From: Psammoneis japonica
Lineage: Eukaryota
DNA length: 64,000 nucleotides
Assembly: GCA_008632985.1 (NCBI GenBank)
Contig: QPGO01000037.1
Span: 372,001 to 436,000 of the forward strand
Direction: 5' to 3'
The notes under the pieces were generated by a model. The model saw only the letters and a list, made by a program, of their open reading frames with translations, was not told where the DNA came from and searched no databases. The position numbers and the translations under genes are program-made. How positions within the stretch are numbered: the stretch's first letter is position 1; every line of letters begins with the position of its first letter. Of this stretch, positions 4,785 through 42,437 are shown one piece after another.

Positions 4785-5047
4785 TGCCGATTCTGTGCTA
4801 CTTCCTACTTCCAGCAACGCGTTTCTCTAATTTGAAATTATCTCATTAAGTTCATAAACCTGTCTGTCTCTGATTCTCAGGCGCTTCTGGTGAATGCAGG
4901 TACTTTCACCGGTGCAACAAATTGAAAATTGGAACTAATGAAATCTCCTCATCGCATCATGCATCATGCATCATGGTCAACACTCAACACCCAACACGCT
5001 GGTCGCGTTCGAGGTCAGAGGAAACAACTCGGTTGACGGACGGATGG

Positions 5048-5357
5048 TGATAGGAAATGGGTAAGAACTGGGTACTCGCCTGAGAGTGTCTTGGGTGATC
5101 AAGTCCGTGCACTGACAGGAGAGAGTAAGCTAGAGCCTAATCTAGAAACAGTACCTTGCGATGATGCTTTGTCTAGAAGTTGTGAGAGATTCTGAGCTAG
5201 TCTCAGAATCGACATGGCTGTCAGAACGGATAGATTCCGACAGGTTGTTGAAACACTCCGAAAGATCAGTGAATTTCAGTCACAAACCCGACTGAACACA
5301 TGTGCTGTCTTCGAACATGAGGTTCCAACATAAAAGGGTCATGTGGGATCCCTGTCA
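5048..5357 (-). repeat. 3' LTR (310 bp)
   Basis: Direct repeat of 12630-12939 with 10 substitutions and no indels, from tgatagg to cctgtca. Confidence 0.97.
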
Positions 5358-5370
5358 CCCCCCTTGAACC
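5358..5370 (-). other. Polypurine tract
   Basis: Minus strand GGTTCAAGGGGGG directly abuts the 3' LTR. Confidence 0.8.
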
Positions 5371-5394
5371 AAATGAGGGAAGATGAGAAGGGGC

Positions 5395-8300
5395 TCATGA
5401 CAGCATGTGTGCAGGCAGGCGCCACAGGACACGGTCGACCATGACCCAAATTTTGTCTGCACATTGAGTTTTGGTGAGGCAGTCCGCCAATTGACTTTCC
5501 GCGGGAACCCAAACAAGCAAGTGATGACCGAGTCGCTGCCCTTCACGGACATGTTGGAAGCGTCGCTCAACATGTCGGGTTCGTCAAGTTTGTTGGTCGT
5601 TTTGGGCCATTTGGACTGCGGCTTGGTTGTCCAACATGAGGATTGTGGGAGTGGTGGACAGTCGCTGGGAGTCAATGGAGCAGTGGCAAGTGCCAAGGAA
5701 GGTGAAGTCGTGGGCCAACATGCGCAGGTGAGCGACAGCCACAGCGCCAGTGCAGGCTCCCATCCACTCAGATTCGGCAGTGGACATTGCGACAGGGGTT
5801 GGGACAGTGGAATTGGCTTCCACTGTTGCCCCATTGAAGCAGACCATAAATCCAACGGTTGACTTGGCGGTGTCCGGACAATCCTGCCAGCTGGCATCGG
5901 TGAAGACCACAAATTCAGAATGACTGATGTTGTGAGCTTCGCAAATCGCGTGAACAGGGCTCGCGGTGGGATCAGAATAAAATTTGATGGCGAGGTCTTG
6001 ATGTTTGCGGAGACAGCCAAAAAGGTGGACGAGAGCATCAAAATCCTTCATGCCAGGGTTGGTGCAAGCCTTTGCAAGTTTGCAGGTGATCCAGAGAATG
6101 TCAGCGCGAGTGTTGCAGGCGAGATAAAGGATGGAGCAGACAGCGGATCGAAAATGGAGACCAGGATGCTTGTTCGCGATTTGCTTGGATTCGGCGGTGT
6201 CCTTGGGTTGATTCGCTTTGGAGTGCACATGGTCAACGGGGGCTGGGGCATCCTGAAAGCTGGGGCTGCCCCAAGGCGAGATGGGAGCAAGGAACCGCTT
6301 GAGGAGATTGCGCACATGTTGATGTTGGTCGAGAGAGAAGGAGCCGTCGGAATGTCGGTGAATGCGCATCTGCAAGAACCAGGCAACGTCACCGTTGAAT
6401 GTGATGTTGCACCTGGATCGTGTGAGATTCTCAAAGTCCTTTTCGACTCTATCGTGAGACCCAAAGTAGATGACATCATCCGTGTAGAAAATGAGCTTGA
6501 GATGTGAGCCGTCGGGGAAGTGCTTGGCAAAGAAGGTGGGATCTGCCTTGGAATTGGTGCATCCTTGGGCAAGCAAAAATTCGGAGAGCTCGGTTGACCA
6601 CCAAAGACCGCTGCGGATGGTCCCGTGCATGCCTTTCTTGAGACGGAGGGGTGCACCAAAATATTCAGCAAATTCAGGAAAATGTTGCTTCAGAATCGGG
6701 TCGAATCGAACAAATGGGCGGCCGCGAGCGGGGGCTTGAAGGCAAGCACCGACGAAATCACCATTCTTGACGTGTCGTTTGGCCTTTGCTGCAAAAGCCA
6801 GGAAGAGCTTGATGGCACGAGAGGATGCGTTTGGTGACCAATTGTCGTCATCGGCTGATTTGCGTTGCATGTCGCCGCGCGCACAGTGTCGAGCCTTGAG
6901 TTTCTCCAGAGAGCCGTCGGATTTCTCCTTGGCACGTAGAGCAAGTGTGGTGCCGATGATCTCATCGTCTGGACGGGGACATTCATGAAGAGCAAAAGTT
7001 CCATTGTCCACGATGAGGTTCTTGAGCTCAGATCAGACGGCACGAAGCCAGGCATCGCGAATCGCAGGAGGTTGTCTGAGGATGGCTCGAAAAGAGCGGG
7101 GAACGGGTGAGCAGTCATCAATGGGAATTGAAGAGGTGGCCTGGACGGCTTCCAAGGCCTGTTGCAAAGGATCCGGGCATTTGCACCAATTGCAGTCAGG
7201 CCAAGGAGATTTGACGGAGGCGCTGCACGCAGATTCCATGGCGAGCGAGTCGTCGAAGAGAGTTTGTTCGAGGAGATTGACTGGGGGAGTGGAGGAGGTT
7301 ACAGCGTAGAGTTGCTCCTCGTCCGCGAAGCGTGCGGAAGTGCGGAGGCCAGCGTTGGTGCGAGTGGATCGTCTGAGACCGGTTGTAGCGGGTGCAGGGG
7401 ATGGTGGCGCTGAATTGGATTCATCGGATTCCGGAGGCGCTTCGGTGAGAGTGGAGGAATGAGGGGGTGAGTCAACGTCAAGGAAATCTTGAATGGCACC
7501 CGCATGTTCATCCACCGGAATCTCGTCGCATGTCTTGAGGCCAGAGGCGTCGTTGGAGATGTTCCGGATCGGGAGTGCACCAGAGAAGGGGACGTGGTCG
7601 TGCACGAGTGATGATTCGAAAAGTTCGTCGAAGACAGCATCATGCGCTGCAATCAGATTCTTGGTGCCGATGCCCTCAGGAACATGGATGAGGCAGCCAG
7701 CCTGGTTTGGTGCGAAACCTACATGAATGCCACGAGATCGACGTTGAATCTGTTGTTGGGTGGTGGTCGGGCAACGAGTTGCCGGGTTGAGAGGTTGGCA
7801 TCTGTCAAAAGTGACGGGACATCCAAAGACCCGAAAATTGCCAATCTTTGGAAGTCTGTTGAATGCATGGCAGTGCGGTGTAGCCAGGGAGCCATCAGGG
7901 AGCCACGTGCCTTTGGCTGGGAGAACATTCAGGATGGCGACGGCATGGACAAATGCATGATGGCAGAAGTGTGCCGAGAGTCGTGCGTTGACAAGGAGGC
8001 AACGAATCATCCGGCTTGCGACTTGCCACATGCGTTCCGCGACCCCGTTCTGCTCCTGGTGACGTGGAGCGGCAACATCGACCTTGATTCCATTGTCTTC
8101 ACCAAAGGCAAGAAATTCGGAGGACAGAAAGTGTGTTGCGGAGTCCGCGCGGATGAAGTTTATTTCTTGGATTTGTCCCTGGGATTGCACTTCGGTCATC
8201 CATGATTTAAAGGCGGCGATGATGTTGCCAGATGATGGGCTCTCGAGGCCACGAACACCGCAGTGGTGTCCTTTGTGGGTTGCCAAAAAGAGGTGGCAGG

Positions 8301-11300
8301 GAAAAGACGTTTTTGGGGTGAGTGCGACTGTGTGAGGGTTGGGAATTATGTCCACAAACACACGTGAAAATGTGTGTGTTGGTTCAGTTGGGTCACACTT
8401 GACGCGGTTGCGCTTTCGGGAGATGGCGATGCGCGCGTTGTCGAGACAGTCGTCAGTCCCGGGGGCAACATGGCAGTCGCGCCAAACTTCGCCAACTGTG
8501 CCCGCCAAAAGGCTCTGAGAGGAGCGACAACCGAAATGGCGACCTGCAAGGTCAAGGTCGATTGCATGTGTCGTTGGTTTCGATGAGCCTTGGGCGTCGG
8601 TTGCTTCCGTCAACGGGAGGTCGGAAGTGGGTTCCGGTTCTGTGGCAGCTGTGACATCGTGACAGGAGCGCCTGTGACGGAGAATCGGGAAGCTGAATGT
8701 GTGTCCGTCGCCAAAGTCAAGTGTCGTGATGTTGGCAGTGATTCGGACATTGAAGAGTTCATTGGCCGTGAAGGAGGGTGCCGAAAACAAGTTCCGGTTG
8801 AGGCCGGGGATGCAATGGATGCGATCGAGAACAAGGTTGACCGGATGTCCTTGGTCGTCTTGAAAACGGAGGGTGACGGATCCAACTTTCGTGGCATGAA
8901 TGGTGGTGCCGTCTGCAACAACAACAGGGACGTGACAGGAGGTGCTGTTGTCAAGTGAGTCGTGACGAACGAAATGGGAAGAGGCACCAGAGTCGACAAA
9001 CCAACTGCTGATGTCCGTGAGGTCGGAGTCGCGGGGCAGTTGGTGAGGTCGGCACTGGTTGGGATCGTCGGCCATGCAGGCAATTTGAACGTGACAGTCA
9101 GCGGTGTTGCATGAGAAACGGGGGATGGTGTGGACCACATCGACAGAGTCACAGCTGAGATCAGATGTGATGGAGTCGATGTCATCGTCAGAGATTGCAG
9201 TGTGCCCGGATGCGTAAGATGCCGTGGTGAAAGCGTCGTGGAAGTCGAAGCAGACTGGTGATTCCTCGGGAGAGTTCCCGGGGGGCGGTTCATCAAAAGG
9301 GCAGGCCGTGGCATCATCCGGTTCGCATGGGCGACGGACCAAAGACGGCACAGTGGATGATGATTCCGTGCTGGAGTCGCAATCATGATGTTCAAGGGGC
9401 GGAGGACCAGCAGAGTGCGAGTTGGCGGAGAGAGTGTCGTTGCCATCAATCGAAGAGATGTCATCGAGGAGGTCCTGGAGAGTGATGGCAGGCACAGTTC
9501 CATGAGTGGAGGAAGATGCGATCGAGTCACTCGTGGAGCAGCAGGCAGATGAGTCGTCATCAAAGGAGACGTGGCGTGGTGCCAGGGTTGGGATAGAGTC
9601 GGAAGAGGAGGGACAACAGGAGTGAGTGTCCTCCATGTCAGCTCGAGTAGCGCAGAAAATGATTTGGTCCTTCCGGGGAGGTGCCTTTGCGCGGCAGTGC
9701 ATGGCAGGTGCAGTGGCTGCGAGAGTGGTCTTTTTGGAGTCCTTGGCAAGTTCGGGACAGTCGGGACAAAGGTGCCCCTTTTTTTTGCATTGACAGCACG
9801 TGACTTCGCTGAGGTCGCGAGGAGGTTTGGTAGCAGGTTGATCTTTGGGTGTGCCCTGCTTCAGATCACGGAGCCGAGAGCGACAGACGGAGGCGTTGTG
9901 GTTGCGTTTTCCACAGCAGTCGCAGATCTCGGTTGCGTTAGGTTGGTTTGGGCGACGGTGCTGCTGTTGCTGTCGTTGTGCATTCCGAGGAGTGCGTTTG
10001 ACGGTAGCAAGGTGAGCATGGTTGTTGTGAGAGCGGGAGCGGGAGCCATGCGAGAGCCGATCACGATGCTGTTGGTTGTGATGCTGCTCGTCGATGTCAT
10101 AAAACGTTTGCCGGATGTCCTTAAATCGAGGAGCGGTGGCAGAGGAGAGACGAGCAGCAGTGCGAAATTCGGATTCGAATTGCTTGATGGCAGCGTCGTA
10201 GCGGGGATGGCTGCCCATTTGGCCGAGAAAATGGGCACTGACATCCGCATCAGTCTTGACGGGAAGGCCGGCGTTCTTGTAGCTCCGGAGTTTTCGTTCA
10301 AACCGTTGGATGGAGCTGCTGGCGGACTCGTCCGAGTTGCGAAAGACTTGGAGGTAGTCGTTTGAGCAGTGGTTGCTGTGTTCCTGAGTGATGGGCGCAC
10401 AGCGTAGCTGGAGTTCTTCGAGAGCAAGTTTGCCGGAACGCGATCCAAGGTCAGAAATGTCAGATTGGTGCGTTGCGTCCACATGCGTCCAGAGGAGAGC
10501 ACAGAGGGCGCTGTTGGCATGGTCTGGAAGTGGGCGGAGAGGGACAGAGGGAAAATTATCGAGCACACCATTGAATTCCGGAAATGATGCGAAGGTCCCA
10601 CGTAAGTCATTCAAGAATGCATAAAATTTTTGTCGTCGTGTGTGCGGATTCTGATGGTGCTTCAGAGTGCGCAAATTTGTGTGGGATGCATGCTTCATCA
10701 GTGAATTCGACAAGGATTCCGAGGTGCGCTCGCTGGCGACATGAGAGAAAACAGTGTCGTCGACTGATGAGTGGTGGGCGGACGGGCAAGCGGGGTGTGG
10801 TCGTGGGGTGAGGGCAAGGCAGAACATGAGTTCCAAGTAAAGGGACTCGGCTTCGCGCATCATGTCCTGAAAACGACGAAGTGCTAGAGTGCTTGCTTCG
10901 CAGGCAGGGTGTCGACGAAGGAGGTGCTCGAAAGACGTTTTTGCCGAATCGACAGTGTCGCGAAGCTCAACGGCACGTTCATTCTCACGATGGAAAAACG
11001 GTGCAAGAGCTTGTTGGGTGTCGAAGAGAGCCTCGAAGGTGACGAGACGAACCTGGACGTTGATGTCTTGGTCGACGGATGGGGCAGATGCGTCAGAGGT
11101 GTCGGGCGAAGCTGGAGAAGGTGAGTCGACTGCAGGAGTGTGAGCAGGAGAGGCAAGAGCCTCATCAAGTGCTCCATCCATTTCGTTTGACATGGGAGCA
11201 ACAACATCAAAAAGCGGTGTCGCGGAGGTTGATGACGGGTCGACATGGGAGAGAGCAGGAGTGGCTTGATCCGTTGGAGATGAAAGCGGGGGGAATTCCT

Positions 11301-12471
11301 CAGGGGACCCCAGTGGTGCAGTGACAGTGGGAGTGGGTGGCGGGTCGTCAGCAATGGGTTGAGACCCCCCTTGAGCTGATGCACCGTGCTCATCGTCGGA
11401 GTGTACGGTTTCAACGGTGACATAGATGAAGTGATCCGAAGAGGGGTGCGGAGGCTGCTGCGGGCCACTGTCTTGACACTTTCTTGTTTCAGGCTGAAAA
11501 AAAAAAAAATCAGCGTCTGGATGATAAAAGGGTTTAGAGCGGGACATGCCGTGGCGGAGACGGTAGGATCGTAGGGCATGGTGTTCCTGGTTGGGAGTCA
11601 TCCGGAGTGATTTCCGCGAGCGTGAGTTGGTTCGACGTTTTCGGGGGCGCGGCCGAGAAAAGTGAGCAGAGGGCGCGGGGTCATCGCGTGCGGAAGGTTT
11701 CGGAATGCGGTCATGCAAAGTGTCCAAATCGACATGTAAAATGTCAAGGGATGTGTCGACATCTGTCAATTGGTCGTGGATCGCGCGGTCACAGAGATTG
11801 TGCTCGGGGTCGAAAAACTCGGATTCGTCGTGAGTGGCTTGATCCAATGACGTGTCAAGTCGAGCACGAGAGTGCTTGATGACGCGAAAGTTGGAGTAGA
11901 GCTTTTCAGTCTCGGGTTGGAGACGATCAACGCGGGCCTGGGCCTGAGCAAGACGTTCGCTGAGAGCGGCGCGGACGCCAGCTTTGACACGAGAGAGACG
12001 GAGCTCGTCAGGTGTAGGCCGAGCAGGAGCCGGGGTGCGTTTGACCGAAGCAACAGAGCGACGAAGAGCGCGTTGGGTACGATGGCGAGCGGTCTTGGTG
12101 CGCTTGCGAGTCAGCTGCGAAACAGCATGAAGGGTCCTGGGCAAAGTGACGGGTTTGCCGTTGCGAAGGCCACGAACAGATGAGCGAACACGGCGCTCAA
12201 AATCCACAGTGTCGGTAGAGCTAGAGAGCGTGCGGTGGATGGCACGTTGAGAGCGACGGGTGGAGACCTTGTTGTGCCTGGGGGCCTGCTGCGAGGGCTT
12301 GGAAGGCGGCTTGGAGCGTGGCGCAGATGTGCGCTTGATGCAACGGGTGGTGGGGTGGTGCACGCCCTGGGTCACGCGACGAGAACGACGACGACGTGCG
12401 GTGTACATGCCAGCATGCTGGACAATGGAGCCAGCATCAACATTGTGACAACGGTCACGAGGGTCGGCCAT
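5395..12471 (-). pseudogene. Single-frame Gag-Pol polyprotein with two in-frame TGA stops (7033-7035, 5584-5586) and many Tyr-to-His/Cys changes; start codon uncertain
   Basis: ORFs 7033-12684 and 5584-7011 and the tail to 5395 share one frame. The stops sit at Arg positions (WLRAV*SELK, QT*RTRHVERRF), consistent with CGA-to-TGA. Confidence 0.9.
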
Positions 12472-12611
12472 GGGGACGTCATCGACGGAGCGTCCGTGGA
12501 CCGTAAAAACTTCATGCGAAGAAAGTGCGTGCGAAGACGGCTTGGGAGAGGAAGCATTGCGAGACGCATGAGCAGCGCTCGGCTTGAAAGAAGCGGTCGT
12601 GTTGGACTGAA

Positions 12612-12629
12612 CCGGAAGCATTGCAACCA
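12612..12629 (-). other. Primer-binding site (priming tRNA not identified)
   Basis: Minus strand TGGTTGCAATGCTTCCGG begins immediately after the 5' LTR, and TGG is complementary to tRNA CCA. Confidence 0.7.
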
Positions 12630-12939
12630 TGACAGGAAATGGGCAAGAACTGGGCACTCGCCTGAGAGTGTCTTGGGTGATCAAGTCCGTGCACTGACAG
12701 GAGAGAGTAAGCTAGAGCCTAATCTAGAAACAGTACCTTGCGATAATGCTTTGTCTAGAAGTTGTGAGAGATTCTGAGCTAGTCTCAGAATCGACATGGC
12801 TGTCAGAACGGATAGATTCCGACAGGTTGTTGAAACACTCCGAAAGATCAGTGAATTTCAGTCACAAACCCGACTGAATATATATACTATCTTCGAACAT
12901 GAGGTTCCAATATAAAAGGGTCATGTGGGATCCCTGTCA
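12630..12939 (-). repeat. 5' LTR (310 bp), retains the TATATATA box at about 12879-12886
   Basis: Direct repeat of 5048-5357, from tgacagg to cctgtca. Confidence 0.97.
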
Positions 12940-13101
12940 GATGGTCATTCAGGGCAATATGTATGTGGACAGAGGTTTCTGTCACAAGTCATCAGGGCAT
13001 AAGTCTTCTTTCCCGCGCTTTTCACTGTTTCACATCCACATGCCCCCTTTTATTCTGCCAAGTCGTCGGGAGCCTTTTCGTTGTGAATACACCTCGACAC
13101 C

Positions 13102-18668: not shown

Positions 18669-19664
18669 ATGGACGACAGAGACGATCCATATGACGTCTT
18701 GGGCGTTTCCAGAGATGCGTCCGAATCTCAAATCAAAGCAGCGTATCGAAAACTCGCGTTGCGTCATCATCCCGACAAGCAAACCTCAGAAGCGGCCAAG
18801 GCAGAAGCGACGGCTCGTTTTGCCAAAATTAGCAACGCGTATGAAGTGTTAAGTGATGTAGAACGACGACGTGAATACGATTCGCCTCGTGCGTTTCGAC
18901 ACGACCATGATGGTGTTTTTCGTCACTCGTTCCACGATCCGTTTTCCGTCTTTGCTCAAGTCTTTGGAGAAGAGTTTGGTTCTGTTCCTCGTTCTGGCTC
19001 GCGTCGTCGCAGTACTGATCCTTTCCAAGACACTTTCTTTCAGGATCCATTCAATGTAGGAGGAAGTATGTTTGGGGGTGGAATATTTGGTAGTGGCATG
19101 TTTGGAGGAAGAAGCATGTTTGATCAAATGGACCAACAAATGAGACAACACGAGGAAATGATGCGTCGAGGCCAGAACCAGTCACAGTCCGGCAATTACT
19201 ACTATTCTAGTAGCAGCAGCAGTACTTTTGGAGGAAACAGAGCGGGCGAATCTGTCACGACAAGCACTCGCACGATTAATGGCAAGACTCAAACCGTGAC
19301 TGAGCGTGTCATTACCAAACCAGATGGTACGGTCGAGCGCCATGTGGAAACTTCTGGGGACGAGGACTTTCCTGCGCAGATTGATCATCCCTTTTTCAAT
19401 CAGTTACCCAACAGCAACACGAACCATCGTCAGTTGGAACACAATGCGACCGCTCCTCAGGAAGAAGCGGCAGGCGCACCCAAGAAACGACGATTCTTCA
19501 GTAGGCGCAGTTCCAAGAAACATCATGGCGAAAGAGACGATCCTGACTCGACGGGTCAGTCGGGCCCCCATCATCACGATATTGAATATTGCTCTCTATT
19601 ACGAGAATTGTACGTTTTAGGAAGCTCACCCATGCTGTCGAGGAAGTCTATACTTAATTTTTAG
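18669..19664 (+). CDS. DnaJ/Hsp40 protein (DNAJB6/8-like); 3' end uncertain
   Basis: J domain DPYDVLGV...YRKLALRHHPDK...AYEVLSD, an FxDPFxVFxxVFG motif, a G/F/M-rich linker and an S/T-rich beta region. Confidence 0.92.
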   Translation: MDDRDDPYDVLGVSRDASESQIKAAYRKLALRHHPDKQTSEAAKAEATARFAKISNAYEVLSDVERRREYDSPRAFRHDHDGVFRHSFHDPFSVFAQVFGEEFGSVPRSGSRRRSTDPFQDTFFQDPFNVGGSMFGGGIFGSGMFGGRSMFDQMDQQMRQHEEMMRRGQNQSQSGNYYYSSSSSSTFGGNRAGESVTTSTRTINGKTQTVTERVITKPDGTVERHVETSGDEDFPAQIDHPFFNQLPNSNTNHRQLEHNATAPQEEAAGAPKKRRFFSRRSSKKHHGERDDPDSTGQSGPHHHDIEYCSLLRELYVLGSSPMLSRKSILNF

Positions 19665-26613: not shown

Positions 26614-27590
26614 TTAAAACTCAATTCGCCGGAAAACAGCAGAAGACTGTCTGGGCCCATCTCCTAGGTTGCCCACCAAGTTCCAACCAGTGCCCCATAG
26701 AGAGCCATCTGTCTTGATAACCATGGAAAATGAACAGCCAGTTGCACAGAAGGCAACGTCAGACATGATCATCTCAAATTTTTGAACCCCGTCGACTGCA
26801 GTTCCGAGTCCAATGGGCCCACTTGCCCCAGCCCCCCACAACGTTCCATCCTTCTTTATCGCTGGAGTATGACGACCCCCTGCTGCGACTGAAACAACGT
26901 CAGTCAGGACATCCACTGGATCGAAAATGATGTTCGATCTCGTACCATCACCGATCTGACCACTGCCGTTGGCGCCCCAACCTGCCAGAGTTCCATCTGA
27001 TTTCACTGCCATGACCCTCGCACTCGATGTCACAACTGATGCAACAATCTCCAACAGCTTTGCCGGAGTTGACACCTCTGCTTGGTCTGGGTCCACCAGG
27101 AAAACGCCATATAGTTCATTTCTTCCCATGCCCAACAGAGTTCCATCTTTCTTCAGTATAAATGATGCTGAGTCGCCCGCAGCTACTGCGCCTACGTTTG
27201 ACATTAGCTTTTTGGGCACTTTCGCCTGCCATAGCGTCGCATCCGTTTTCACTGTTAATGCGTGGTATAAGTGCCAGCGGAAACGGCGGCAACATCACTC
27301 ATAATTTGAGTTGGTTTCAACCTCCTGATGTTGCTTCCATCACCGAGTTGATTGCTCACGTTCAAGCCCCAACCCCACAGGGTGCCATCCTTTGTGATTG
27401 CCATGTTGTGGGATTCACAAGCAGATGCTGATGTTGCGTTCGACATGACTTCCACTGGGGAAAGACGACTCTCCTCAGCTGTTCCGTCTCCCAAGTTCCC
27501 ATTGTCGTTGTTGCTGGCGCCACATAATTTCCCGTCAGACTGAAGAATCATGGAGCACCGATTGCCAATCGTGACTTGAACTGTTGTCAT
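26614..27590 (-). pseudogene. RCC1/BLIP-II repeat beta-propeller, intronless; frameshift near 27265; 5' part TpA-eroded
   Basis: Repeats of VxAGxxHxxAIKxDGTLWGWGxNxxGQLGDGT in ORFs 27255-27731 and 26614-27252. Confidence 0.88.
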
Positions 27591-28329
27591 CCGCTCTCCT
27601 TTCTTCTTCTGTCTTGACAAACCAGCATCGGCGAAACGCATTGAGGTTCTAGCTCTTGCATCAATGAATGCTTTCAAGGTGACCAAAAAACAACTGCAGC
27701 AGCCAGCAAAAGAACAAAAGATGCACCACAATCAACTTCATTGTTTCATTGTTGGCCTGCTGACATGCTTTTGTCATTGCAATCTCAGCACAAAAAAAAA
27801 AGGGTGTTTTTCACTTGCCAAGACTTGCTCACACTTTCCCCCTCTCATTGTCATGAGAGTTGATTGTTGAATCAACAATTGCAATGGACCAAGAGTTGGT
27901 TTGTCACCATCATCGACACACCAAAAGATGTGATGCCTGGGATGTTCAGGAAATTTTGACGGGTTTTTGTGGCGTGCACTTTGCACCCACAGAACCTGTG
28001 CTGCCGCCACTCATGACAAATCAATGTCAATGTGTGAGCTTCATCAAAGGTGGTAACAGTGGTTTCCACTTTCCTTTGTAAATTTTTTAATGTGCGCTGT
28101 TAAAATTGTTAACAAGCAGAATTTAAAAAATGCCAGAAAAAGTGCTCAACAAATTGAAGCCCTTTTTTGCATTTCATCTGATGTCCCAATGCCTTTTCTT
28201 TCACAAGCTTCAATCAAATGCATGCAATGTTTAATTTAATTGGAATCAAAATCTGTTTTTTGTGATGCATGGTTTGGTTTCCTTTGGATCTTGATCAATT
28301 TGAACTTGGTTTTGACTTTGTCCTCCTCA

Positions 28330-28760
28330 CTCATGTGCATGTGTCTTCGCACTTGTGCAGTCTGCAGCACTTCACGCACACACGTGACCCACCACTTCTC
28401 TTCATGTTTCCCAGATTTGCACAGCCCGTTGGTCTGCGGCGTCTTCAGTGTGTGTTTTACATGCACAATTTTCCACACATTTCACAACAGCACACCCTCT
28501 CCCCAAAGTTTGAAAAACGAGAGCGTGCGCTGTTGTGATTGACGTGGATCCTGCGTGTGGTTGCAAATCTGCAAATCGACAACCGGCCATGGTGGTGAAA
28601 GACTTCACCCCATTGGCCAATGACAGCAGCTCAACATGCGGTGACACCTGCCATCCTTCTGGTTGGTCAAGATGGGGTTTTATTTGGGCACAGCTTGAAT
28701 CATGTGATCTCAAGTGTGCTGTCATGAATCTGCCACATCCAGAATGCTGAGCTGCTGGCG
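28330..28760 (-). pseudogene. Possible AlkB-like 2OG-Fe(II) dioxygenase relic
   Basis: FMTAHLRSHDSSCAQIKPHLDQPEGWQVSPHVELLSL aligns without gaps to the AlkB F..Y..I..HxD...P.I..LSL block. In another frame, KHTL and WWVTCVR (R-x5-R after reverting TGG to CGG) follow. Confidence 0.4.
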
Positions 28761-28869
28761 TGTTGTTGTGTGTTGTGTGCACGCATGTCACAAACTTGCT
28801 TTTCTGCAGTGTTGTCATAATCGCGCATGTCAGAGTTTTGCATCCAGAATCATCATGAGCCACCATGAA

Positions 28870-29152
28870 TTGCGCTGTTCAAACAAGGCATGTGCAAAAA
28901 GAGGTGCATTGGTTTTTGATGCATTCGCTGACAACACATCCATCTTCTCCAATTTCCACATCCAGATCCAGAAAGACTCCAGGCGGTGCTTGTTCCTGCA
29001 GCTCTCAGAATCACACACATGAGGAGTTCTTTGCCACACACAACACTCTTCAAAAAAGGCATGCACAAAAAGAGAGCTTCACTTGTTTTTGATGTGTTCA
29101 CTTGCGTTGCATCCATCTTCTCCAATTTCTGTGTCCAGATCCAGAAAGACTG
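28870..29152. repeat. Direct duplication of a block of about 105 bp
   Basis: ...aaggcatg[tg/ca]caaaaagag...gatg[ca/tg]ttc...catccatcttctccaatttc[caca/tgtg]tccagatccagaaagact occurs twice. Confidence 0.85.
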
Positions 29153-29299
29153 CAGAGGCAGAGAGAGGGGAGGCAACCCATTGGAGATTGCCTGAGTTGT
29201 TGGGCTCATTTTTAAAGGCTTCCCAAGTCTCTCCACTGTTTGTGGTCAAGAGCAGGGGGGGTCGACTACAACAACTGCAGCAGCTGCCAATTCCATGTC

Positions 29300-30135
29300 G
29301 ATGGGTTGGGAACCAGAAGCAGAAGCTTCTGAACTGGCAGTGGTGGATGCACCTGCAAGCCCACGTTGCAGTTTCAATTGGTTGCTGTTGTTGTCCTGCA
29401 CTTTCTCACAAAGCATTTTACATTTCTTTGCAATGAACAAGGTGGGTCAGAGCAATGTTGCTTCACATGGTCCGGAATCAGCTTCGCAGGGTCGGGAACC
29501 GGTGGCAGAAGCAACCAAATCTGCCAAGGCAGATGCACTGGCAAGTCTGCATTGCGGCTTCAATTAGTTGCTGTTGTTGTCCTGTGCACTCTCACAAAGC
29601 ATTTTGCACTTCTTTACAATGAACAAGGTGGATCAGAGCAGTGTCACTTCACATGGTCCAGAATCAGCTTCGTGGGGTCGGGAACCAGCAGCAGAACCAA
29701 CCAAATCTGCCGCGGCAGATGCACCAGTGAGTCTACATTGCGGTTTCAATTGGCTGCTGTTGTTGTCCCGTGCACTCTCACAAAGTGTTTTGTGCTTCTT
29801 TGCAACAAACAAGGTGGATCAGAGCAGTGTTGCTTCACCTGGTCCAGAATCAGCAGCATCGATGCACTGGCATGTCCATGTTGCCATTCCTCTGGGTTGT
29901 GTTGGTTCATCTGTGCAATGCTCTCACAATGTGTTTTGCTCGTTTTGGCAATGAATGGAGTGAAACAGAGCAGCGGCACTTCAAACAACAAAACGACAGC
30001 TCAGCGGCACTGGGTGCACTGGCAAGTCCATGTTGCCTTTCCTGTTGGTGGTGTTGGTTCATCCACACTGTGCTCTCACAACGCATTCTGCACTTTTTTG
30101 GCAATGAACAAGGTGGCTGCAAGCAGCGGCACTTG
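29300..30135 (+). repeat. 186-bp tandem repeat (3 copies plus 2 shorter diverged copies), each an exon-plus-intron module
   Basis: Anchors at 29355/29541/29727 and 29431/29617/29803. Each unit has a donor-like site, a ctcac branch-like motif, a pyrimidine tract and AG, then VDQSSVTSHGPESAS..EPAAEPTKSAAADAP. Confidence 0.8.
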
Positions 30136-31269
30136 ATGAAAGTGAGCTGCAACTGCTGCTGCAGACTCCAGGGTGTTGTTTCCGTCGGCGTCATTCAATT
30201 TAAATGTGGACAACAAAGTGGAATGTTCATGGTGCAGTGCAAATGATTTTAATTCACAGGTTTTGCAGGGATGGAGGGTGGGCACTCTCACAGGGAAAAC
30301 ATGCCCCTGTTTCTCAGTGAAAAACATTTTTTCTCATGGAGAGGGGGGTCTGATCCCACAGCACAAAAATGTTGATCTGTCACAGTTGACATGTCATTGC
30401 CAGCTGCACAACTGACAAGGTTTGAAACTGTAAAAAAATCATCCACAAAAGGAACAAAAATCACAATGAAAAGATGTGTGATGATCACTGCATTGCGTGC
30501 TCTGATGTTGTTGCCAAAGAATGACAGAATGCTTCAAAAGAGCAACAAATGTTCATTTTCCATTGCACCACCAACTTTGTAGCATCAACAGGCCACTGGG
30601 CATGGCAGATGAGGCAGAGTTGAGAGGCTCATCATTGAGTCATCTTTCAGGCTGCATGGTTGCTGGTGTGGGTGGCAATGACATGCCATGGCCAGAAGCA
30701 GGTTTTGTGCATGTGGCCATGATGGAAGCCAAGGAAGAGGAGGCAGTGGTGACAGTGATGCAAGACATGGCTGAGTTGATGGTCACAATGTCACCAGCAT
30801 GGATGCTCAGAGAGAAGTTGTCAAATGTCCTGGCAGATGGCAGATTGAGATGACCGCAACAGCACAGTCATGGTGAATGACAAAAACTGCATCACCACTC
30901 CACCTGAGATGCACACCACTGCCAAGCTTTTTCTTTGTGCCAGTGCTCTTTTGTGAGATGCACAGCAAGAAAAATGTTTTTGACAACCATGATGAACAGC
31001 TCCTTGACTTGCAGGGGACAATGCAGCACTTTTTGCAAACAAGCAGAAGCAGGGCTCTTGAGGGAGCACACACAAAGTTGGAAACAAATGAACAGATGCT
31101 GCACTTGTCAGCTCAAAAACAACAGCCCATGAAGCAACTGTGGCTCAGCAACAAAACAGCAGCAACACAGAAACAAAGGAACACAGAGAGTCAAAGCAAG
31201 CAATGGCTGCACATGCCTTGAGCGATTGTTGCAAAGCAGCATTGCAGCCCATGTTTATCCTGAGTCCCA

Positions 31270-32120
31270 ACCACCAGCATTGTTGATTGTTGCATTTCAA
31301 CATGTGCAAAAGGAGAAGCAGCAACTGTCAAGATGTGCAGAGCAGCAAGTCTGAGACACCACAGAAGCAATGGGAAGAGAGAGAGAGTCAAAAAAATTGC
31401 CACTCATGCCTTGAGTGTTGTGAAGTGGCACCACCATCATCATGCCATCCTGATCACCAGCATTTTTTGTTGTTAAATTTTAACCATGCAAAGGAAAAGT
31501 GGCAAATCTCAAGAGATGGAGCAGCAAATCTAAGACACAATGGAGACAAAGGGAACAGAGAGAGTCAGAGCAATGCTCGATCACACCTTTGGCACCATTT
31601 TGAAGTGGCATTGCTGTTGTCACCCCATTTGATGCCATCTTTGATGTTGGCCCAAATGATGCATTGTGCAACACCTGAGCCACACAAGAGGAGAAATGGC
31701 AAGTCTTGGAAACCACAAAAATGAAGGGAACTGAGAGAATTAAAGCAACAGCATGCACATCTTGAGTGTCACAAAGTGGCAACCTCCAGTGTTTTTGATT
31801 GTTGCATTTCAACATGATGAATCGCACAGCACATGAACCATGAAAGAGCAGAAATGGCAAGTCTTGGAAGCCACAGAAATGAAGGAAATGAAGAGAATTA
31901 AAGCAATGGCTGCAGTGTTGCAGTTGCACATGTTCATCCCAACCATCAGCCAGCATTTCTGATTATTTCATTTAAACATGGTGAACAGAGCAGCACCTGA
32001 ACCAGGCAGAAAAAAAGCTGGCAAAGCTCAAAACCACAGAAATGAAGGGTGGGGAGAGAGCAAAAAACCGGCTGCACACATCCCTTGTGCTGGAACTTGT
32101 TGAGCACAGACATGAAAGCA
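31270..32120. repeat. Degenerate tandem repeat, about 5 copies of roughly 160-200 bp
   Basis: The motifs aaatggcaagtcttggaa.ccaca.aaatgaagg..agagaattaaagcaa and gattgttgcatttcaacatg recur. Confidence 0.7.
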
Positions 32121-35100
32121 TTGTGAAGAGCAGTGCAGCCATTGCCACATTTGTTCTTTGACAAAAACTGGCCCATTTTGAGCTGTTCAGCACCTGAATG
32201 CTTGGAAAGAATGGCGTTGCTGCAAATGCCTGAAGAAGCCATTGAGAACTTGAACATTGCACACAGTGGCACCACTGTCATCACTCATTGTGGTGGCCTT
32301 GCCTTGCAATGAGCTCTGTGTCCAAACAGAAGATGCAAACTCAAACACAACATGTGCAAACAGTTGTCACCTGAAATGTGCAAAAAAGAAAAAAGCACAG
32401 AAATGCTGCACATGGAAAAGGTGCATTTTTGCTTGCCTGGTGTGCTGTGCTGACTCTGTTGCTGCACTGTGTTTTGCTGTCATCAGCATTTGAAGTGTGT
32501 GCCACCTGCACTGCCAGAATGACTTGCAAGAACCATGGCACATCGATGGTGGACATGGGTGATTGACTTGTGACACATTGAAGCAGCCAGGCTTGTGTTT
32601 GCATTGACAGATGCTGCCAGAATCACATTGTGGCATTGACTTGGATGCAAAGCAGTGCTGTTGAGTGTTGAGTGATTTGATGTTGTTTGTCAGCTCTCTG
32701 GTGCTCATCCTGCTGAATTCTGCACAGACAAAAACCAGGCATCACACCCCGGTGCTTCACACATTCCTTCCAGAGCTGAAGCAAACCCCTCAGTGGAAAG
32801 CTGGGGGCTCCCTGAAAAGTGTTTGGCAAAGAACAGGTTGTGCACAACTTTTGTGCAGTGATCAACAAATGCTGCATTGTTGCAGCCCAGCACCACAAAT
32901 CCACATGGCAGACCTGGGGCACACACTGGCAGCAGGCTCCCCAAACTGAAAAGGGCGCTTGCCTTTTGCCATGGCATGGTCAAGCCCATCAGGTTGTCAA
33001 CACCAAATTGCAAGCTGAGCTGGCAGTTTCTTGCTTTGGCCATGCAGCTCAGCCAGTTGGTGCAAAAAACTTTTCACTCAGAGTGGGCTCTTAGAAGACT
33101 CTCCTCTGTGAGCTGACAGCAGAAGCCAGCAGCACACAAACACAGCACACAAAAGTGTGCACTGCTTTTTTGTCATTTCAGGTTGCAGTGTGCTGTTGAG
33201 CCTGTTGCAAATTGTGATAACTTGGCTTTGTTGCAATGACGTCCCATGCATGCTGCTGCATTCTCCCAGTGCTGGCTGTCATTTGAAACTCAAGTCGCTG
33301 AAGTGACAGATGGGCAAGTGAAAAAGCACCTGTCTTTGATGCATGGGGTGAAACAAAACTCAGCAGCTGAGCTTCACATGCACACACTGCTAAATGAACA
33401 ACCCAAAGCAAGGCTTGAAAGCAACAATGCAGTCAAACAAAATGACTCTTGCATGAAAAATGAGTTTGTTTGCAAGCTCAAAATGAGAAAAGTGCCAGAG
33501 TCAAAAAAGCAATGAAGAGGCAACCTGACAACATGTGTGCAGCGGGGGGGGGAGGGGGCATCTGTTCTCATGCGTGTGCACTGCCTGAAGCAGCCAAAAG
33601 TGAGCGCAGCTGAGCAAACCATGGTGGTGGGATCTGAGGCTGCAAGACAACACAAATTTGAGAAAGAACAAGTCAAGAGCCAGCAGCTGGTGGAGCCCTT
33701 TGGTGCGATGCTTCTCTTTGTGGGATGAGACATGGAACACAGGTCCAACTGTGTGCATCAGAGTGATCTTTCAGGACATTGCAGTGGGTTGGAAGGCTGC
33801 CATGATTGGAGCCAACAACCAAGCTGGCACATCTCTGCTCAAGATGGAACACAGAAAGAGCAGCAGTGGTGAGACAATGATGCCATGGTGGAAAAAGATG
33901 ACAATGTTTTCCCAACATGCCTGCTGTGTTGGAAGTGCTTCATTTGGCAGTCAAGTGCTGAACAAAACCATGGATGGCAAATTTTCAACTGTCTCTGAAC
34001 CATCATCTCTCCTGTGGCCAGCTTTGCTCTGTGCAGCATCTGGACACACCAGCAGAGTGGAAAAGTCTTTGAGAGGAAGGCAGGCAAAGAACATCAACAT
34101 TGACAGTTTTGCATTCTTCCGGTGCTCTTGCTTTGCAACTGCCTTTTCAATCACTCTTTTTGGATCTGCGTTTGAGTCTCTTGCCTGATCTGTCATGGTC
34201 TCCAAGTGATGGGCAAGTCTCAGTGCTGCCAACATGTGAAAAAGCATGCTCAAGCTCCACTTTCTGCATCTGCCTCAGCAACATCTGCCTGTGCTGCAAT
34301 GAATCAAGCCAGTTGTGTTGATGTGAGCATTTGAAAAATGCTCAGCAAGGCAGTGACTTCTGTCTGTGCAGCACATGAATCACAGAAGGCTTGGACACCT
34401 GCTTGTGAACCTGAAGCAAGGCTCTGTTCCCTCACCCATTTCTGTTTGAGCCTGACTCAGTTGTCACCACTCCTGACATCACAAGTGGTGCCATCAAGTC
34501 CAAGAAATCATCTGCACAAAGTCAAAAGACAGGTGTTTGAGTGATTTTTTTTGTGCTCTTTTTCTGTCTCTGCTCTTTGCTCCTCTGAACATTGCCAGTG
34601 TTGCCACATTCTCCAGGTGTGAGCTCCCTGTTCCATCACTCTTTTGTGCTCCAACAGCAAGTGGGCAATCTCAGCCTTGTTGATCAGCAAGATGCAAAAT
34701 TTGTGTCAGATGTCTGAGCCATCTGAAAAATTCAAATGGAGAAAAAGCAACTCCAATGATGTCTTGCAATCCTGTTGCTTCTTGTCTTTTTATCATGCCC
34801 TTGAAATTAACCAAGTTGCCTTGAGCACACTTGTCTGCAAGCAAACCCCCAAGAAAGAGAGTTTTTTTACAGTGCAGTGCAGCCATGGCTGTCTCCATCT
34901 GGAAGGCACCATTGCAAAACAGGAAACAAATCTGTTTGGCTTTGGCAATTTGACAACCATTGACAAGCTCAAGGCTCATGAGATCAGATGTCCAACCCAA
35001 GTCATTGAACCAGTTGTTTTTCCAATGCTGTTGCATTTTTTGTGTGTGCTCCATCATGGGTGCATCTGTTTTTTGTTGTTTCCCCCTTTTCAATGTGCAG

Positions 35101-38100
35101 CCCATCCATGGTTAATTCTGTTTGTGTTCCTTTGCAAATTGTTGCTGTCTGCAGCTGATCTCTGTCATCTTCTGGCATTCCTTCTTCTCTGGTGTCCATG
35201 CACTCCCAGATTCCTTTGACCAAACTTCATTGCACTTGTTGGTGTCCTTGGCTCAATCTTTGCTTGGGAGTGCATTTCCAACTCTTGGTGTGCCTCTCCA
35301 GCCCTTGCTTGTTCCAACCATGATTCCTTCTTGCTTGCTTTCCTTTTCCCATGCTTCACTTTGCATCAGGAATGAGCCCCTCCTCTCTGTCTTCCTTCAC
35401 CTCTTCCTTTGCTTTGCTGTGCATTTGAGCCCACTTGTTCCAGTTGTTCTCCAACACAAGCATGCTGAATGTCTCATTGGCTGCAAACACCAGCTTGTTT
35501 GAGCAACTGTTCTGTTTGTGAACCCATGCTTCCACATCATCTTCTCTGCCACAATTGGCAGAAATTGGCAGGTGAAATGGCTTTGGGCACAACTTTGTTC
35601 CTTCCCTCTGGCATTTCCTCTGGAGATGTCATCTTGTTGTTTTCTGCTTGTGGGCTCATCTTGTCATGATCCATCATCCACCCTGAGCACACACAACACA
35701 CAAAGCACCAGTTGTCAGCTCTTTTCCAGCTCTCAGTCTGCAGCACACTCCATTTGTCACTTGCAGAAGAATTCTTTCTTCAGTTCCCTGATTGCATTGT
35801 TCCTCTTTCTTGTCATTTGCCTTCACACCTTCTTGTTTGACATGCATCCCAGATTCTCACTCTCTTCTCTTGTGGCAAACTGAGCTCAAACACAACTGTT
35901 GTTGTGACCCTTCCATCATCTTAAGGTCCTTTTATTCAGAAACTTGCACTGCCAAAACAGTGCATTGTTGCAGCAGCTCTCCCAAACAATCTTGTCCCTG
36001 TTGCTCACCTCATCATTGCATTGCTTTTTCTTTCATTTCTTAGTTGCAATGTCATCTTGTTCTTCCATTGCAGATGCAGAGAGAGCCCACCCATGACAGC
36101 TGATTTGCCATTTTGTTGTGTCGCTGTTGACACCAATGTGCTGTTCTGCAGCAGAGCCAGCAGCTCTTGCCCCTGCCATGCCCACCACAAGCCACAATTT
36201 TGGGGAGTCAAGCCAATTGCTGTGCACCTCACATTGACAATGTTGGTCACCTCATGTCATTGTGGGTTTGGGTGCGGCCCACTTGCTGTCACTTGGCTTG
36301 GCATGGTGTTGTGTGCGTTTTGACTTTTTTGCAAAAAAGTGTGATTCATTCACGGATGCATGCCTTGCACCTGCTGTTTCAATGCATTTCTGCATTTGTT
36401 CTCTTTGTTTGAACATCTGGTGAAATTTCTCATTGGCACAAAATTTTGCAACATCACCTGATTGTCTGCTGATGATGATGCACACATTCATTGCACATGC
36501 ACTCCAAGCTTTCAATTGTCTGCCCTTCCATCACACCATGGGTGGTCTCTGCCAAAAAGACTGTGCTGTGTCAGCACAAGCAACAAACACCCCACAGTGC
36601 ACCAGCATGCATCTTTTGTGCTGTCCACCTCCTCAAGACTCTCACAGACCTTTTCTGACCTTGGCAGGCCTTTCCTTGTGGAGAGTTGTGTGCAGCCACT
36701 TAAGCTGACATTCTTTGAGGGGCTTGTCTTTTTGGTTTGGTGCTGTGACAACACAGTGCTTCTTCCCACATGTGTTTTCATCTGACATCAACAGATGATG
36801 ATTTCACTCTTCAATGTCTTTGGTGTCTTGTTTTGCCAAGATTGCATGCTTGGTGGGGGCCTTTTTCTTGTTGACCAACCACTTGCAGATGTGGCCTCCA
36901 CGTTGTTTGTAAAATTTTGTCACACCTGTCTGGGATCCATGATCATGCTGTGCAGCAGCATCAAGTCTGCACAATCCTTTCTTTTCATGTGGGGGGTGCA
37001 ACTGGTGTTTCTGGCTCCATCCCTTTTTTGGTTTCTGTGGATGGATGCATGATTGTGTTGTTTGGCAATGCATTGAGAAAGTCCAGCTGATGATTTTGTA
37101 ACCACTCTTTCCTGCTCCATCCTCCCTTTTGTTTGTTTCCACTTGCGCACCTTCAGTTTCCTTTTGGTGCTTTCCAGTCAGTTCTCTCTCTCTGCATGTC
37201 TTGTCAGCAGGGGCAACTCCTTCATTGAACATGTCTCTTCATTCCTCAGGCAGGTTTGGATCAATTTCATCCAGAACACCCACAGAGGACAGCCAGAAGA
37301 AGTCAACCAAGTTGGCTTTGTTTGCTTTCCCAGCTGAAGCAGCGGAGTCTTTGACATTTGTGTTGTTTTGGTTGTCTGCAACTGCACTGTTTGTGTCTTT
37401 GCTGTGTCAAAAAAATCAATGGAGAGTTTGCTGCTGTCCATGAAGAGCTCAACTGATGTCGACGCTGTCCGGCAGAGCTCTTCTCTTCAATGTGAGTGAC
37501 ACCTTGGACTCACAGCCTGTGCACAGTGAGGAGTCCACACCATCCAGCTTAAGTTGCTGATGTGGTGCACCTCATGTGCAAACATGCATGGGCAAGTTTT
37601 GTCACCCACCCAAAGATTCTCTCACTGTGACAAGCCACCATGACATCCTCACCTCTCACAATGACAATGCACACTTTTTCACAATGAATTCTGGGGGTTG
37701 TGCCTCCCAGCAAGTTTGCTCTGAAGTGTCACCTCAATCACTGCAATGCAGCAATCAATGCATCAAGTGCTGCTTTGGAAGAATCTTCTGCTCCTCCTCC
37801 TGTGAGGTGTGTTGAGCCAGGCATTGCCTCAAAAAATGGAAACAAGAATGACAAATTCTTTCTTGACATCACCTTCATGGAGGACCGCTGCTCAATGGAT
37901 GTCAATGAAGAGGGTGATGGTGCAAACACTTCTCAGTTGATGTGCAACAACAACAAAATTGCAGGATGTCAGCTTTCCTTCCAACATGGTTTCTTGCCAT
38001 CAGAGCTGGAGCTTTGTTGCTCCAGAAGGATTGTGTTGAACAAAAGAGGCCAAGACAAACCAGCAATTCTTCTCATTCCACCAGACGAGTGGCAACCAGG

Positions 38101-41100: not shown

Positions 41101-42437
41101 TGAAGTGGCAGCCCAGAAGATTGTCAATGTCAGTGTTGGCAACATGTGGCAAAGGAACACAACAGTCAGGAAAGACAGTTGGGTTGTTGTGGTCCATCAA
41201 AAAAATTCTGGAAGAAAACCAAAAAACATCCTGAACTCACTTGGCGCAGTCAGAAACTCTGAAAAATGCAAAAAGCACAAGAAGATCATCCACTGGTGGC
41301 ACACATGACCAATGGGCACCCCATCACAGGAATTTTTACTTCCTGTGCATTGAGTGGAAGTGCTGCCACAATCCTTGTGCATGCCCAGGAGCAGCTGACA
41401 CTTGGTGCCGGCAAAGGAAGAAGAATCTTTGTCACACTCTAAATCAAGCAACATGTCTCATCTGTTTTGCATGCACCAGCATTTGAGCTCAACTTGTCAT
41501 GGAAGGGTTGCCCAATGGAAAAACGAAAAACCTGCATGGACCCCCCCTCTCCTCATCTCTGAAGTCAAGCTGCGCCAGCAGCACCAACTCCATGATGATT
41601 GTGTGTCAATGGATTGGGGCTGGGCTCTTGTGGGCTTTGTTGCACAAGACAACTTCCAGCTTGCTGTTTGACAATCTTTGGAACAACAACTCATGGCTCC
41701 ACATCTTGAACAAACTGGAAGAGATGAATGAAAGTGTGCGCGAGGCAGCGATTGGCTCGTGGTGTCCTTGTCTGTTTTTGCGGCATGCTGGCATTTGGGC
41801 TCAACTTGTCATCAACAGTTTGTGCAGCCTCAAGGAAAAAAAACAAGAACACCAGGATGGGTAAATGGATGATGATCACTGTGCCAGCACCCCAATCCTC
41901 TGGGTGTTCCAACCACTGTCTTCGCAGAGTGACGGCTTCTGCCATCACCTTGGTGTTGTGAGCAGGTGCAGCACACCAATGGCACCTTTTCCCCCTTGGC
42001 AGTCTTTCCATCCCGTTTCTCTTGCTCTTTTTTCCCTTCTTGATGTTGACCAGTGAATGAAATTCAAAATGGGCACAGCATCTATCTTGCCTGACGGCAA
42101 GTGTGGAGGTGTCCAAATCGGCACAAGAAGGTCGCCCGAAAAGATTTTTTGGAATTACATCACAACATTGCCCCTATGACGTGTTTTGTGTCATTCAGAA
42201 AACAACGATTTACGTTTAAGGGAATTCCGAACTCATAACGGTCGCAAACGCATTTCCATTAAGTAAAACAAGAGTACACTCATGCCGTTGCATTGCGTGC
42301 GTCGATGCAATCAAAGAATTCCGACATGCATGCGTGCCGGTACGGTAGGAACTTTTTTTAGCGAGCGCGTGCCGATGGAATGTGCCATCATTTTTCTCTC
42401 ACTTTTTTCCTTTTTCATTTCCCACGACCAAGTTCAC

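Follow-up and report, generated by a model that had tools for sequence, protein, structure and literature searches.

Hypermutation of foreign DNA from AT to GC, specific to the dinucleotide TpA, has so far been described in one preprint, which concerns one alga and its integrated viruses. As reported in the main text of that preprint, mutation-accumulation lines of Bigelowiella natans yielded 302 new nuclear single-nucleotide mutations, of which 231 fell within two integrated-virus regions, and 230 of these 231 were A>G or T>C changes, all of them on TpA; mutation there ran about a thousand-fold faster than in the rest of the genome and struck only some of the lines, and reverse-transcriptase and DDE domains were over-represented among genes low in TpA (Mettrop et al., bioRxiv 10.64898/2026.01.13.699255, 2026). 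Its authors propose adenine deamination by an ADAT2-like enzyme, and its Discussion recalls that ADAR favours a U before the edited A (10.64898/2026.01.13.699255). Here we describe the same signature in a different lineage and in a different class of target. The locus lies in a stretch of 64,000 nucleotides, contig QPGO01000037.1, positions 372,001 to 436,000, which will be called the window, and it is a full-length Ty1/copia-type long terminal repeat (LTR) retrotransposon, encoded on the minus strand and belonging to a multicopy family.

As far as the main text of the preprint describes the process in B. natans, the element shares with it a change that affects only TpA and yields TpG or CpA according to the strand, with CpA and TpG rising as TpA falls, together with a restriction to delimited regions of foreign or mobile origin that contrast sharply with the neighbouring DNA. 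Like the low-TpA genes of that alga, in which reverse transcriptases are enriched, the target here encodes a reverse transcriptase (RT). In B. natans the rate lies orders of magnitude above background; the corresponding figure here, according to which TpA sites of the targeted zone outpaced other sites by a factor of at least a few hundred, is an estimate from LTR counts and not a measured rate. The two cases differ in that B. natans is a chlorarachniophyte (Rhizaria), whereas the host here is diatom-like (Stramenopiles), and in that its targets are single-copy inserts of a giant virus or virophage, whereas ours is a multicopy LTR retrotransposon. Furthermore, the depletion reported for its nucleocytoplasmic large DNA virus region is 0.45, whereas it is near saturation here (0.13), and new mutations were observed directly there, whereas the polarity here was read from protein conservation. 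New at this locus are the near-saturation, the protein-based polarity and the sparing of the LTRs. In a diatom-like genome the signature would mean that the process is not confined to one lineage, and in an LTR retrotransposon it would mean that transposons are targeted as well as viruses. The words diatom, stramenopile, LTR and retrotransposon are absent from the main text of the preprint (10.64898/2026.01.13.699255), and full-text literature searches returned no report of TpA hypermutation in diatoms.

Other systems resemble the locus in part. Repeat-induced point mutation (RIP) of ascomycete fungi, which also figures in the Discussion of the B. natans preprint, is a dinucleotide-specific transition hypermutation with the character of a genome defence, inactivating transposons in place, within sharply bounded domains. 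However, RIP converts CpA/TpG to TpA, makes the DNA AT-rich and creates stops, whereas here TpA is converted to CpA/TpG, GC is raised and stops are removed; in addition, RIP depends on duplication, whereas the repeated LTRs are spared here. With APOBEC3 and ADAR in animals the locus has in common a deaminase-type transition hypermutation of retroelements, but those enzymes act before integration, their substrate being RNA or single-stranded cDNA, and leave a one-strand signature, unlike the present case, in which both strands are affected and the LTRs differ from each other. Regarding the element itself, its polyprotein in copia order with an RVT_2 domain is like those of the diatom Ty1/copia CoDi groups as presented in Maumus et al. 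2009 (PMC2806351), a source whose text, by term search, has no occurrence of dinucleotide, RIP, hypermut- or TpA. At about 2400 aa the polyprotein is unusually long.

The depletion is restricted to one dinucleotide. TpA has an observed/expected ratio of 0.13 in the internal region of the element and of 0.09 over 5395..9920, with CpG at 1.0, and among the 16 dinucleotides of the internal region TA alone is depleted, the remaining 15 spanning 0.72-1.38. Segments of 500 nt outside the three TpA-poor domains of the window, one of which is the body of the element, mostly give TpA ratios of 0.4-0.9. Among 27 related RT loci taken from metagenome contigs the ratio ranges from 0.46 to 1.00 with a median of 0.68, against 0.10 for the RT of the element, and the depletion is, on this comparison of sequences, not native to the family. 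Codon phase was compared with 13 of the 16 stop-free loci among the 27, leaving aside L010, whose composition is near-identical to that of L009, and the short L025 and L027. The RT of the element holds 17 TA per 1000 codons versus ~160 in these relatives, while its CpG stands at 171 versus 146, and the loss spans all three codon phases (10.4/2.1/4.1 per 1000 codons in the element versus a mean of 55.8/50.5/53.2 in the relatives). Even the non-synonymous phase, that of the Tyr codons, is depleted by ~80%, a loss for which selection acting on codon usage or on RNA cannot account. Two explanations from composition were tried and rejected. GC-biased gene conversion, or a general AT-to-GC bias, fails as the AT, AA and TT dinucleotides are not depleted, and hypermutation did not create the C-rich coding strand, as the relatives share this skew (median -0.17, range -0.36 to +0.18, element -0.21).

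The direction of the change is provided by the protein. The initial annotation, made from the letters of this DNA alone, had quoted nine peptide strings from conserved copia motifs in which Tyr would have become His or Cys, and had taken them to fix the polarity as loss of TA. All nine, with the codons given for them, are present exactly once each in the minus-strand frame 12711-5395, and they were compared with aligned relatives instead of a remembered consensus (Table 1). An origin from Tyr is borne out for LKKGMHG, FVGACLQA, LDQHQHV, HLFGCLR, the His of GCLIHVP, the first His of TPHCHAF and TCCQC; it does not hold for the His of RGIHVGF, where the relatives have Phe, nor for the Cys of GCLIHVP, where they have Trp, and CDCC is ambiguous between Ile and Tyr. 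The polarity itself is that of TA loss, given that the relatives carry TAY (Tyr) where the element has CAY or TGY.

The pattern exceeds chance. Across RT and RNase H, aligned with 19 relatives of 43-53% identity, the element keeps only 3 of 9 conserved Tyr, these being columns with Tyr in at least 80% of the relatives, whereas conserved residues of other kinds are kept at 147 of 176 columns (p = 0.0017, Fisher). The six lost Tyr read His (4), Cys (1) and Trp (1). In leave-one-out controls with each of the 19 relatives, between 7/7 and 9/10 of the conserved Tyr are kept, with zero changes of Tyr to His or of Tyr to Cys. At the 22 majority-Tyr columns of this region the element has Tyr 4, His 4, Cys 5, Phe 6, Leu 2 and Trp 1 times, and its Tyr content is 0.9% versus 3.7-5.3% in the 19 relatives, with His and Cys elevated; in the whole frame, 18 codons out of 2439 are Tyr codons. 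For the protease-integrase stretch, a search of 1.84 billion representatives gave 4265 matches at E <= 0.001, and the 45 with E <= ~1e-30 were aligned. Here Tyr is entirely missing (0/496, versus a median of 3.2% in the 45 relatives), and all seven majority-Tyr columns read His (5) or Cys (2). These controls are less clean, in that the pooled relatives keep 89 of 114 conserved Tyr and display 12 events of Tyr to His or Cys, and a few relatives naturally have His at some integrase sites, for instance 8/42 at the VHAV column; single integrase sites are weaker evidence than the full set. Taken over the element, the direction is loss of TA, in all three codon phases, with no other dinucleotide touched. 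As conserved Tyr reveal which way the sites changed, one genome sequence is enough to recognise the process. Three of the integrase relatives, P0243, P0262 and P0236, are Tyr-poor and His/Cys-rich as well (P0243 has 0.3% Tyr and 5.9% His), and by their composition they may be hypermutated copies in other data sets.

The LTRs tell when and where the process acted. The two LTRs of one element are identical when made, and here they differ at 10 of 310 positions, with all ten being TA in one LTR versus CA or TG in the other; none of the ~270 non-TA positions differs, and neither does any of the 9 CpGs per LTR. The losses cluster at the inner ends. Within the first 62 nt of the 3' LTR, beside the internal region, six of seven TpA sites are lost versus one of twelve elsewhere, and in the 5' LTR the last three, within 26 nt of its inner end, are lost versus 0/16 elsewhere, which amounts to 9/10 inner versus 1/28 outer sites (p = 6e-7), with nine of the ten differences lying within 62 nt of the internal region. 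Since the LTRs differ from each other at TpA sites, the process acted on DNA after reverse transcription. Both strands were affected, as the LTR differences include CA as well as TG forms and the protein has His (CA) and Cys (TG) replacements in about equal numbers. Hence, a TpA-specific, domain-limited process acted on the DNA once the LTRs existed as separate DNA, and the hypermutation extends no further than the internal region and, at most, the adjoining ~60 bp of each LTR. The idea that an old diverged copy had converted the internal region ectopically was considered and rejected, because the 88 nt of LTR edge hold nine TpA changes and nothing else. The earlier claim that TpA loss outruns CpG decay agrees with these counts (TpA 0.13 versus CpG 1.0 in the internal region, and 10/10 LTR differences at TpA with none at CpG). 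Its picture of an erosion has to be refined: TpA loss is indeed far ahead of that of CpG, but it is not a slow erosion and instead a domain-limited hypermutation that spares most of the LTRs.

A change from TA to CA or to TG leaves every sense codon a sense codon and eliminates the TAA and TAG that it hits. Across all six frames, TAA occurs 2.9 times per kb in the internal region versus 17.5 in the background and TAG 3.8 versus 19.8, whereas TGA is unchanged (39.7 versus 37.4). That the damage proceeds by missense change rather than by new stops, as had been proposed, is thus a result of the genetic code itself, and the counts bear it out, with TAA and TAG about five times rarer and TGA at its usual level. 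The erasure of TAA and TAG also accounts for a 1892-codon open stretch that reaches into the LTR and for long spurious open reading frames (ORFs) in other frames. The initial annotation had further noted abundant CpG and only two stops, and this stands: CpG is at 1.0 of expectation, and the internal in-frame stops are both TGA (7033-7035 and 5584-5586). They need another cause, because TA to CA or TG cannot create stops; relatives have Lys, Arg, His or Glu at 7033-7035 and Lys or Arg at 5584-5586, and it is plausible from these residues that the two TGA arose by CpG decay (CGA to TGA). Decay of this kind is present in the frame, in which three conserved Arg read Gln via CGR to CAR. As predicted from its translation, Pol is crippled by missense changes while the frame remains open. 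The element lacks autonomous coding capacity, having two in-frame TGA, replacements at 6/9 conserved Tyr of RT-RNase H and a protease-integrase stretch free of Tyr. Elements of this type keep long open frames and appear intact to gene finders, yet their proteins are dead, and their GC is raised, which is the opposite of the decay usually expected.

The TA that survive in the internal region have a context and a distribution of their own. Of these 47, 19 stand in CTAC/GTAG (background 16%) and none in ATAC/GTAT (background 15%), which could reflect either a flanking-base preference of the mutator or simply the survival of Tyr codons in a strand rich in C; 18 of the surviving TA are Tyr codons. 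By position, 29 lie in the 5' 3 kb and 18 in the 3' 4.3 kb of the internal region.

Further copies of the family were sought in one public DNA run, X1, by matching sampled 31-letter words of the element; X1 was the one DNA run listed as containing it, and no RNA run was listed. X1 contains 58% of these words, which places the sequence physically in reads, and 871 contig pieces from it align to the element at a likeness of at least 80%: 240 at 99% or more, 294 at 95-99%, 219 at 90-95% and 118 below 90%. The spread of the 871 pieces across these bands identifies the family as multicopy and diverged. Differences between copies were examined at the 40 best-supported of 1193 variant places, and among these, three single sites and two adjacent pairs have TG in the window versus TA or CA in all other copies.

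In our judgement, the evidence makes it likely that this is a copia element whose internal region was hypermutated at TpA, at the level of DNA and on both strands, by what would be a host-directed defence of the kind observed in B. natans. The most likely chemistry would be the deamination of adenine in 5'-TA on either DNA strand, converting A to inosine, which is read as G, and the main chemical alternative would be a mutagenic modification of thymine in the palindromic TpA. The choice of the target would probably be made through chromatin state or through RNA from the body of the element. Repetition alone is unlikely as the cue, because the LTRs, whose repetition is no lower than that of the body, are spared, and because the target in B. 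natans is single-copy. That the LTRs are spared and that the domain ends sharply offers a concrete handle on this choice. A wider proposal, which we advance tentatively and doubt slightly more than we believe, is that diatoms actively defend themselves by locus-directed DNA editing, in which TpA is converted to TpG/CpA in transposon bodies and the LTRs are spared, through a system that is either the same as that of Bigelowiella or convergent with it. If true, an immunity by hypermutation that makes no stops and runs in reverse to RIP would be widespread in the SAR supergroup, guided by chromatin or body RNA and not by sequence repetition. There are diatom species that can be transformed, which makes candidate deaminases or base-modifying enzymes directly testable.

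Several points weigh against this account. Among the same 40 best-supported differences there are five sites where the window keeps TA and all the other copies have CA or TG; these, together with the private sites above, imply that the TA losses are partly private to this copy and partly common to copies, and part of the loss may have been inherited from parent copies that were already mutated. Another 13 of the 40 are CpG decay in the window copy, with TG or CA here and CG elsewhere, and TpA loss is not the sole process at work in the element. X1 is possibly the source sample of the window, in which case it does not serve as independent proof against a base-calling artefact. In the RT, TA in the Tyr phase is less depleted (5 left of ~27 expected) than TA in the synonymous phase (3 left of ~50 expected), and the surviving Tyr occupy the most conserved columns, which hints that part of the TA loss occurred while selection still acted. 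Finally, the proposed mechanism is transferred by analogy from one preprint on a distant lineage.

Some of these points bear on an alternative that we regard as unlikely but worth serious attention, namely that the damage is mostly inherited. The body would have been TpA-poor already in the parent RNA, following earlier rounds of the same host process on ancestors, and a defective copy would have been mobilised in trans by intact relatives; only the ten changes at the LTR edges would be local, and the LTRs would remain TA-rich since they are needed in cis. The five losses common to the other copies and absent here, the existence of a multicopy family over a range of divergence and the slightly better preservation of TA in the Tyr phase are all in line with such a history. 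Yet Tyr invariant in 19/19 relatives are lost and two stops stand in frame, so this sequence was never autonomous, while the LTR edges show that the process operated at this locus itself, with the internal domain as its target, and the three single sites and the two pairs, TG versus CA, are TA losses private to the window copy.

The LTRs and the mixture of outcomes also bear on editing before integration, either by A-to-I hyper-editing of RNA or by deamination of the minus-strand cDNA during reverse transcription, in the manner of APOBEC3. The slightly higher survival of TA in the 5' part of the internal region could recall a gradient of single-strandedness, but such editing would yield only one outcome on the coding strand, whereas His and Cys are about equal, and changes in the RNA would enter both LTRs, which differ at ten TpA sites; we consider it very improbable. 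Still less credible is an artefact of sequencing or assembly, in which the base-caller would have read heavily modified TpA bases of silent chromatin wrongly, as CA or TG. Some long-read methods are known to make consistent errors at modified motifs, and X1 is possibly not independent of the assembly. Against this, there is about one changed site per 23 nt, so that few of the 31-letter words would be expected to match if the changes were absent, and more than half do match in X1; moreover, miscalls from mixed strands should give some Tyr-to-Arg (CG) outcomes, and there are none. The idea that selection or native composition is at work, the family avoiding UpA for RNA stability or codon usage with its protein still functional, retains practically no probability. 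UpA is mildly under-represented in many genomes and also in the background here (~0.4-0.9), but this reading is contradicted by the ~80% depletion of the non-synonymous Tyr phase, the replacement of conserved Tyr, the normal TpA of 27/27 related loci and the absence of any remaining rve Pfam match.

Table 1. Features of the copia element and the peptide strings compared with relatives (positions in the window).
Feature	Position	Strand	Remarks
Target-site duplication, left copy	5043..5047		GATGG on + strand; identical 5 bases flank the outer ends of both LTRs
3' LTR, 310 nt, TG...CA	5048..5357	-	TpA sites lost: 7/19
Polypurine tract GGTTCAAGGGGGG	5358..5370	-	just upstream of 3' LTR; putative role, from position
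Internal region (TpA-depleted domain)	5358..12629	-	47 TA in ~7.3 kb
Single polyprotein frame, 2439 codons	5395..12711	-	internal TGA at 7033-7035 and 5584-5586; terminal TGA at 5395-5397
RNase H part of Pol	5395..6291	-	contains HLFGCLR and the second TGA stop; from alignments
Reverse transcriptase, Pfam RVT_2	6292..6999	-	E 2.8e-16; Tyr of FYTDD kept
Protease and integrase stretch, 496 aa	7552..9039	-	Tyr count zero
Pol_BBD (Pol beta-barrel domain), Pfam	8764-9003	-	E 2.2e-10
Two Gag CCHC zinc knuckles, CDCCGKRNHNASVC and CCQCKKKGHLCPDC	9781..9924	-	
5' LTR, 310 nt	12630..12939	-	TATATATA stretch retained
Target-site duplication, right copy	12940..12944		GATGG on + strand
HLFGCLR	6007-6027	-	Cys = TGT; relatives Tyr 19/19
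LDQHQHV	6313-6333	-	last His: relatives Tyr 16/18, Phe 2/18
LKKGMHG	6622-6642	-	His = CAC; relatives Tyr 19/19
FVGACLQA	6733-6756	-	Cys = TGC; relatives Tyr 12/19, Phe 7/19
GCLIHVP	7678-7698	-	TGC and CAT; His: Tyr in 28/35; Cys: Trp in 25/35, so Cys not derived from Tyr
RGIHVGF	7714-7734	-	His: Phe in 29/35 relatives, so not from Tyr
TPHCHAF	7861-7881	-	first His: relatives Tyr 24, Phe 10, His 3, Trp 1
TCCQCKK	9781-9801	-	relatives Tyr 2/2 (full-length P0050 and P0051)
CDCCGK	9907-9924	-	ends 4 nt beyond 9920, the end first assigned; Ile in one relative, Tyr in the other

The structure of the element is that of a copia retrotransposon. The LTR termini read TGACAGGG...CCT(G/A)TCA, the GATGG outside each LTR is a 5-bp duplication, and the domains follow the copia order, namely Gag knuckle, protease, integrase, RT (RVT_2) and RNase H. 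Two full-length relatives, P0050 and P0051 (2484 and 2627 aa), align collinearly and carry rve, zf-CCHC and RVT_2; as they are similarly long, a polyprotein of ~2400 aa is a family trait. In the frame of the element itself the Pfam families for rve (integrase core) and for the zinc knuckle gave no match at E <= 0.01. A tblastn search with seven relatives matched only this element, with no second copia copy in the 64-kb window. The ~900 codons upstream of the Gag knuckles (9925-12711, minus strand) are common to P0050 and P0051 and unusual for copia, and no known domain was found in this N-terminal part. The closest named relatives of the element come from the diatom Fragilaria crotonensis. Elsewhere in the window, a DnaJ gene (18669-19664) has named homologues in diatoms only, with at most 57% identity, from Asterionellopsis, Nitzschia, Cylindrotheca, Mayamaea, Chaetoceros, Corethron, Thalassiosira and Skeletonema. 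By such sequence likeness, the host is most likely a diatom.

The copia body is one of three sharp-edged TpA-poor domains in the window, the other two being 1-2500 and 27303-42156. The first of these has 10 TA in 2500 nt and CpG ratios of 0.3-0.56, and it holds a fragment of a gypsy-type RT_RNaseH on the plus strand at ~1740-1920, a weak match (E 2e-5, 25.1 bits versus a cut-off of 24.8). It also carries 42-nt tandem repeats at 278-781 and a segment that, by eye, reads ...AQQNHSAIKKELL...; at the NH of the AQQNHSAIKKELL motif we assume the usual residues to be Asn-Tyr, which would make it a second case of Tyr to His.

The domain 27303-42156 extends over 14.8 kb, with TpA ratios of 0.00-0.21, CpG ratios of 0.00-0.51 and CA and TG at ~1.3-2.4, and the same process may have struck it earlier, with CpG decay also near completion. 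A six-frame Pfam scan of 27500-42200, with stops read as X, found no family, and a protein search with a 290-aa ORF from this domain gave a best score of 0.84 with low recognition, taken as noise. Tandem repeats of 186 nt are present at 29298-29855. The TpA-poor zone extends beyond the CpG-poor zone by a few hundred bases at either edge. Two ORFs at one edge, 27255-27731 and 26614-27294, both on the minus strand, resemble RCC1-type repeats by eye (DGTLWGWG...GDG). The upstream ORF of the two falls in the TpA-poor zone, 27303-27731 having only two TA, with CpG normal until ~27640, and the process may spill here into a neighbouring host gene. Together, the two further domains point to a process that is general in this genome, with CpG decay as its slower follower, which fits the order of TpA loss and then CpG loss in the initial annotation.

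A last repetitive region is the 751-aa ORF at 56182-58437 on the minus strand, which has a GC skew of -0.32 and a normal level of TpA. It includes 18-nt tandem repeats at 57365-58009 (22 copies) and repeats of ~135 nt at 56279-56906, and appears to be the gene of a repetitive, low-complexity protein.

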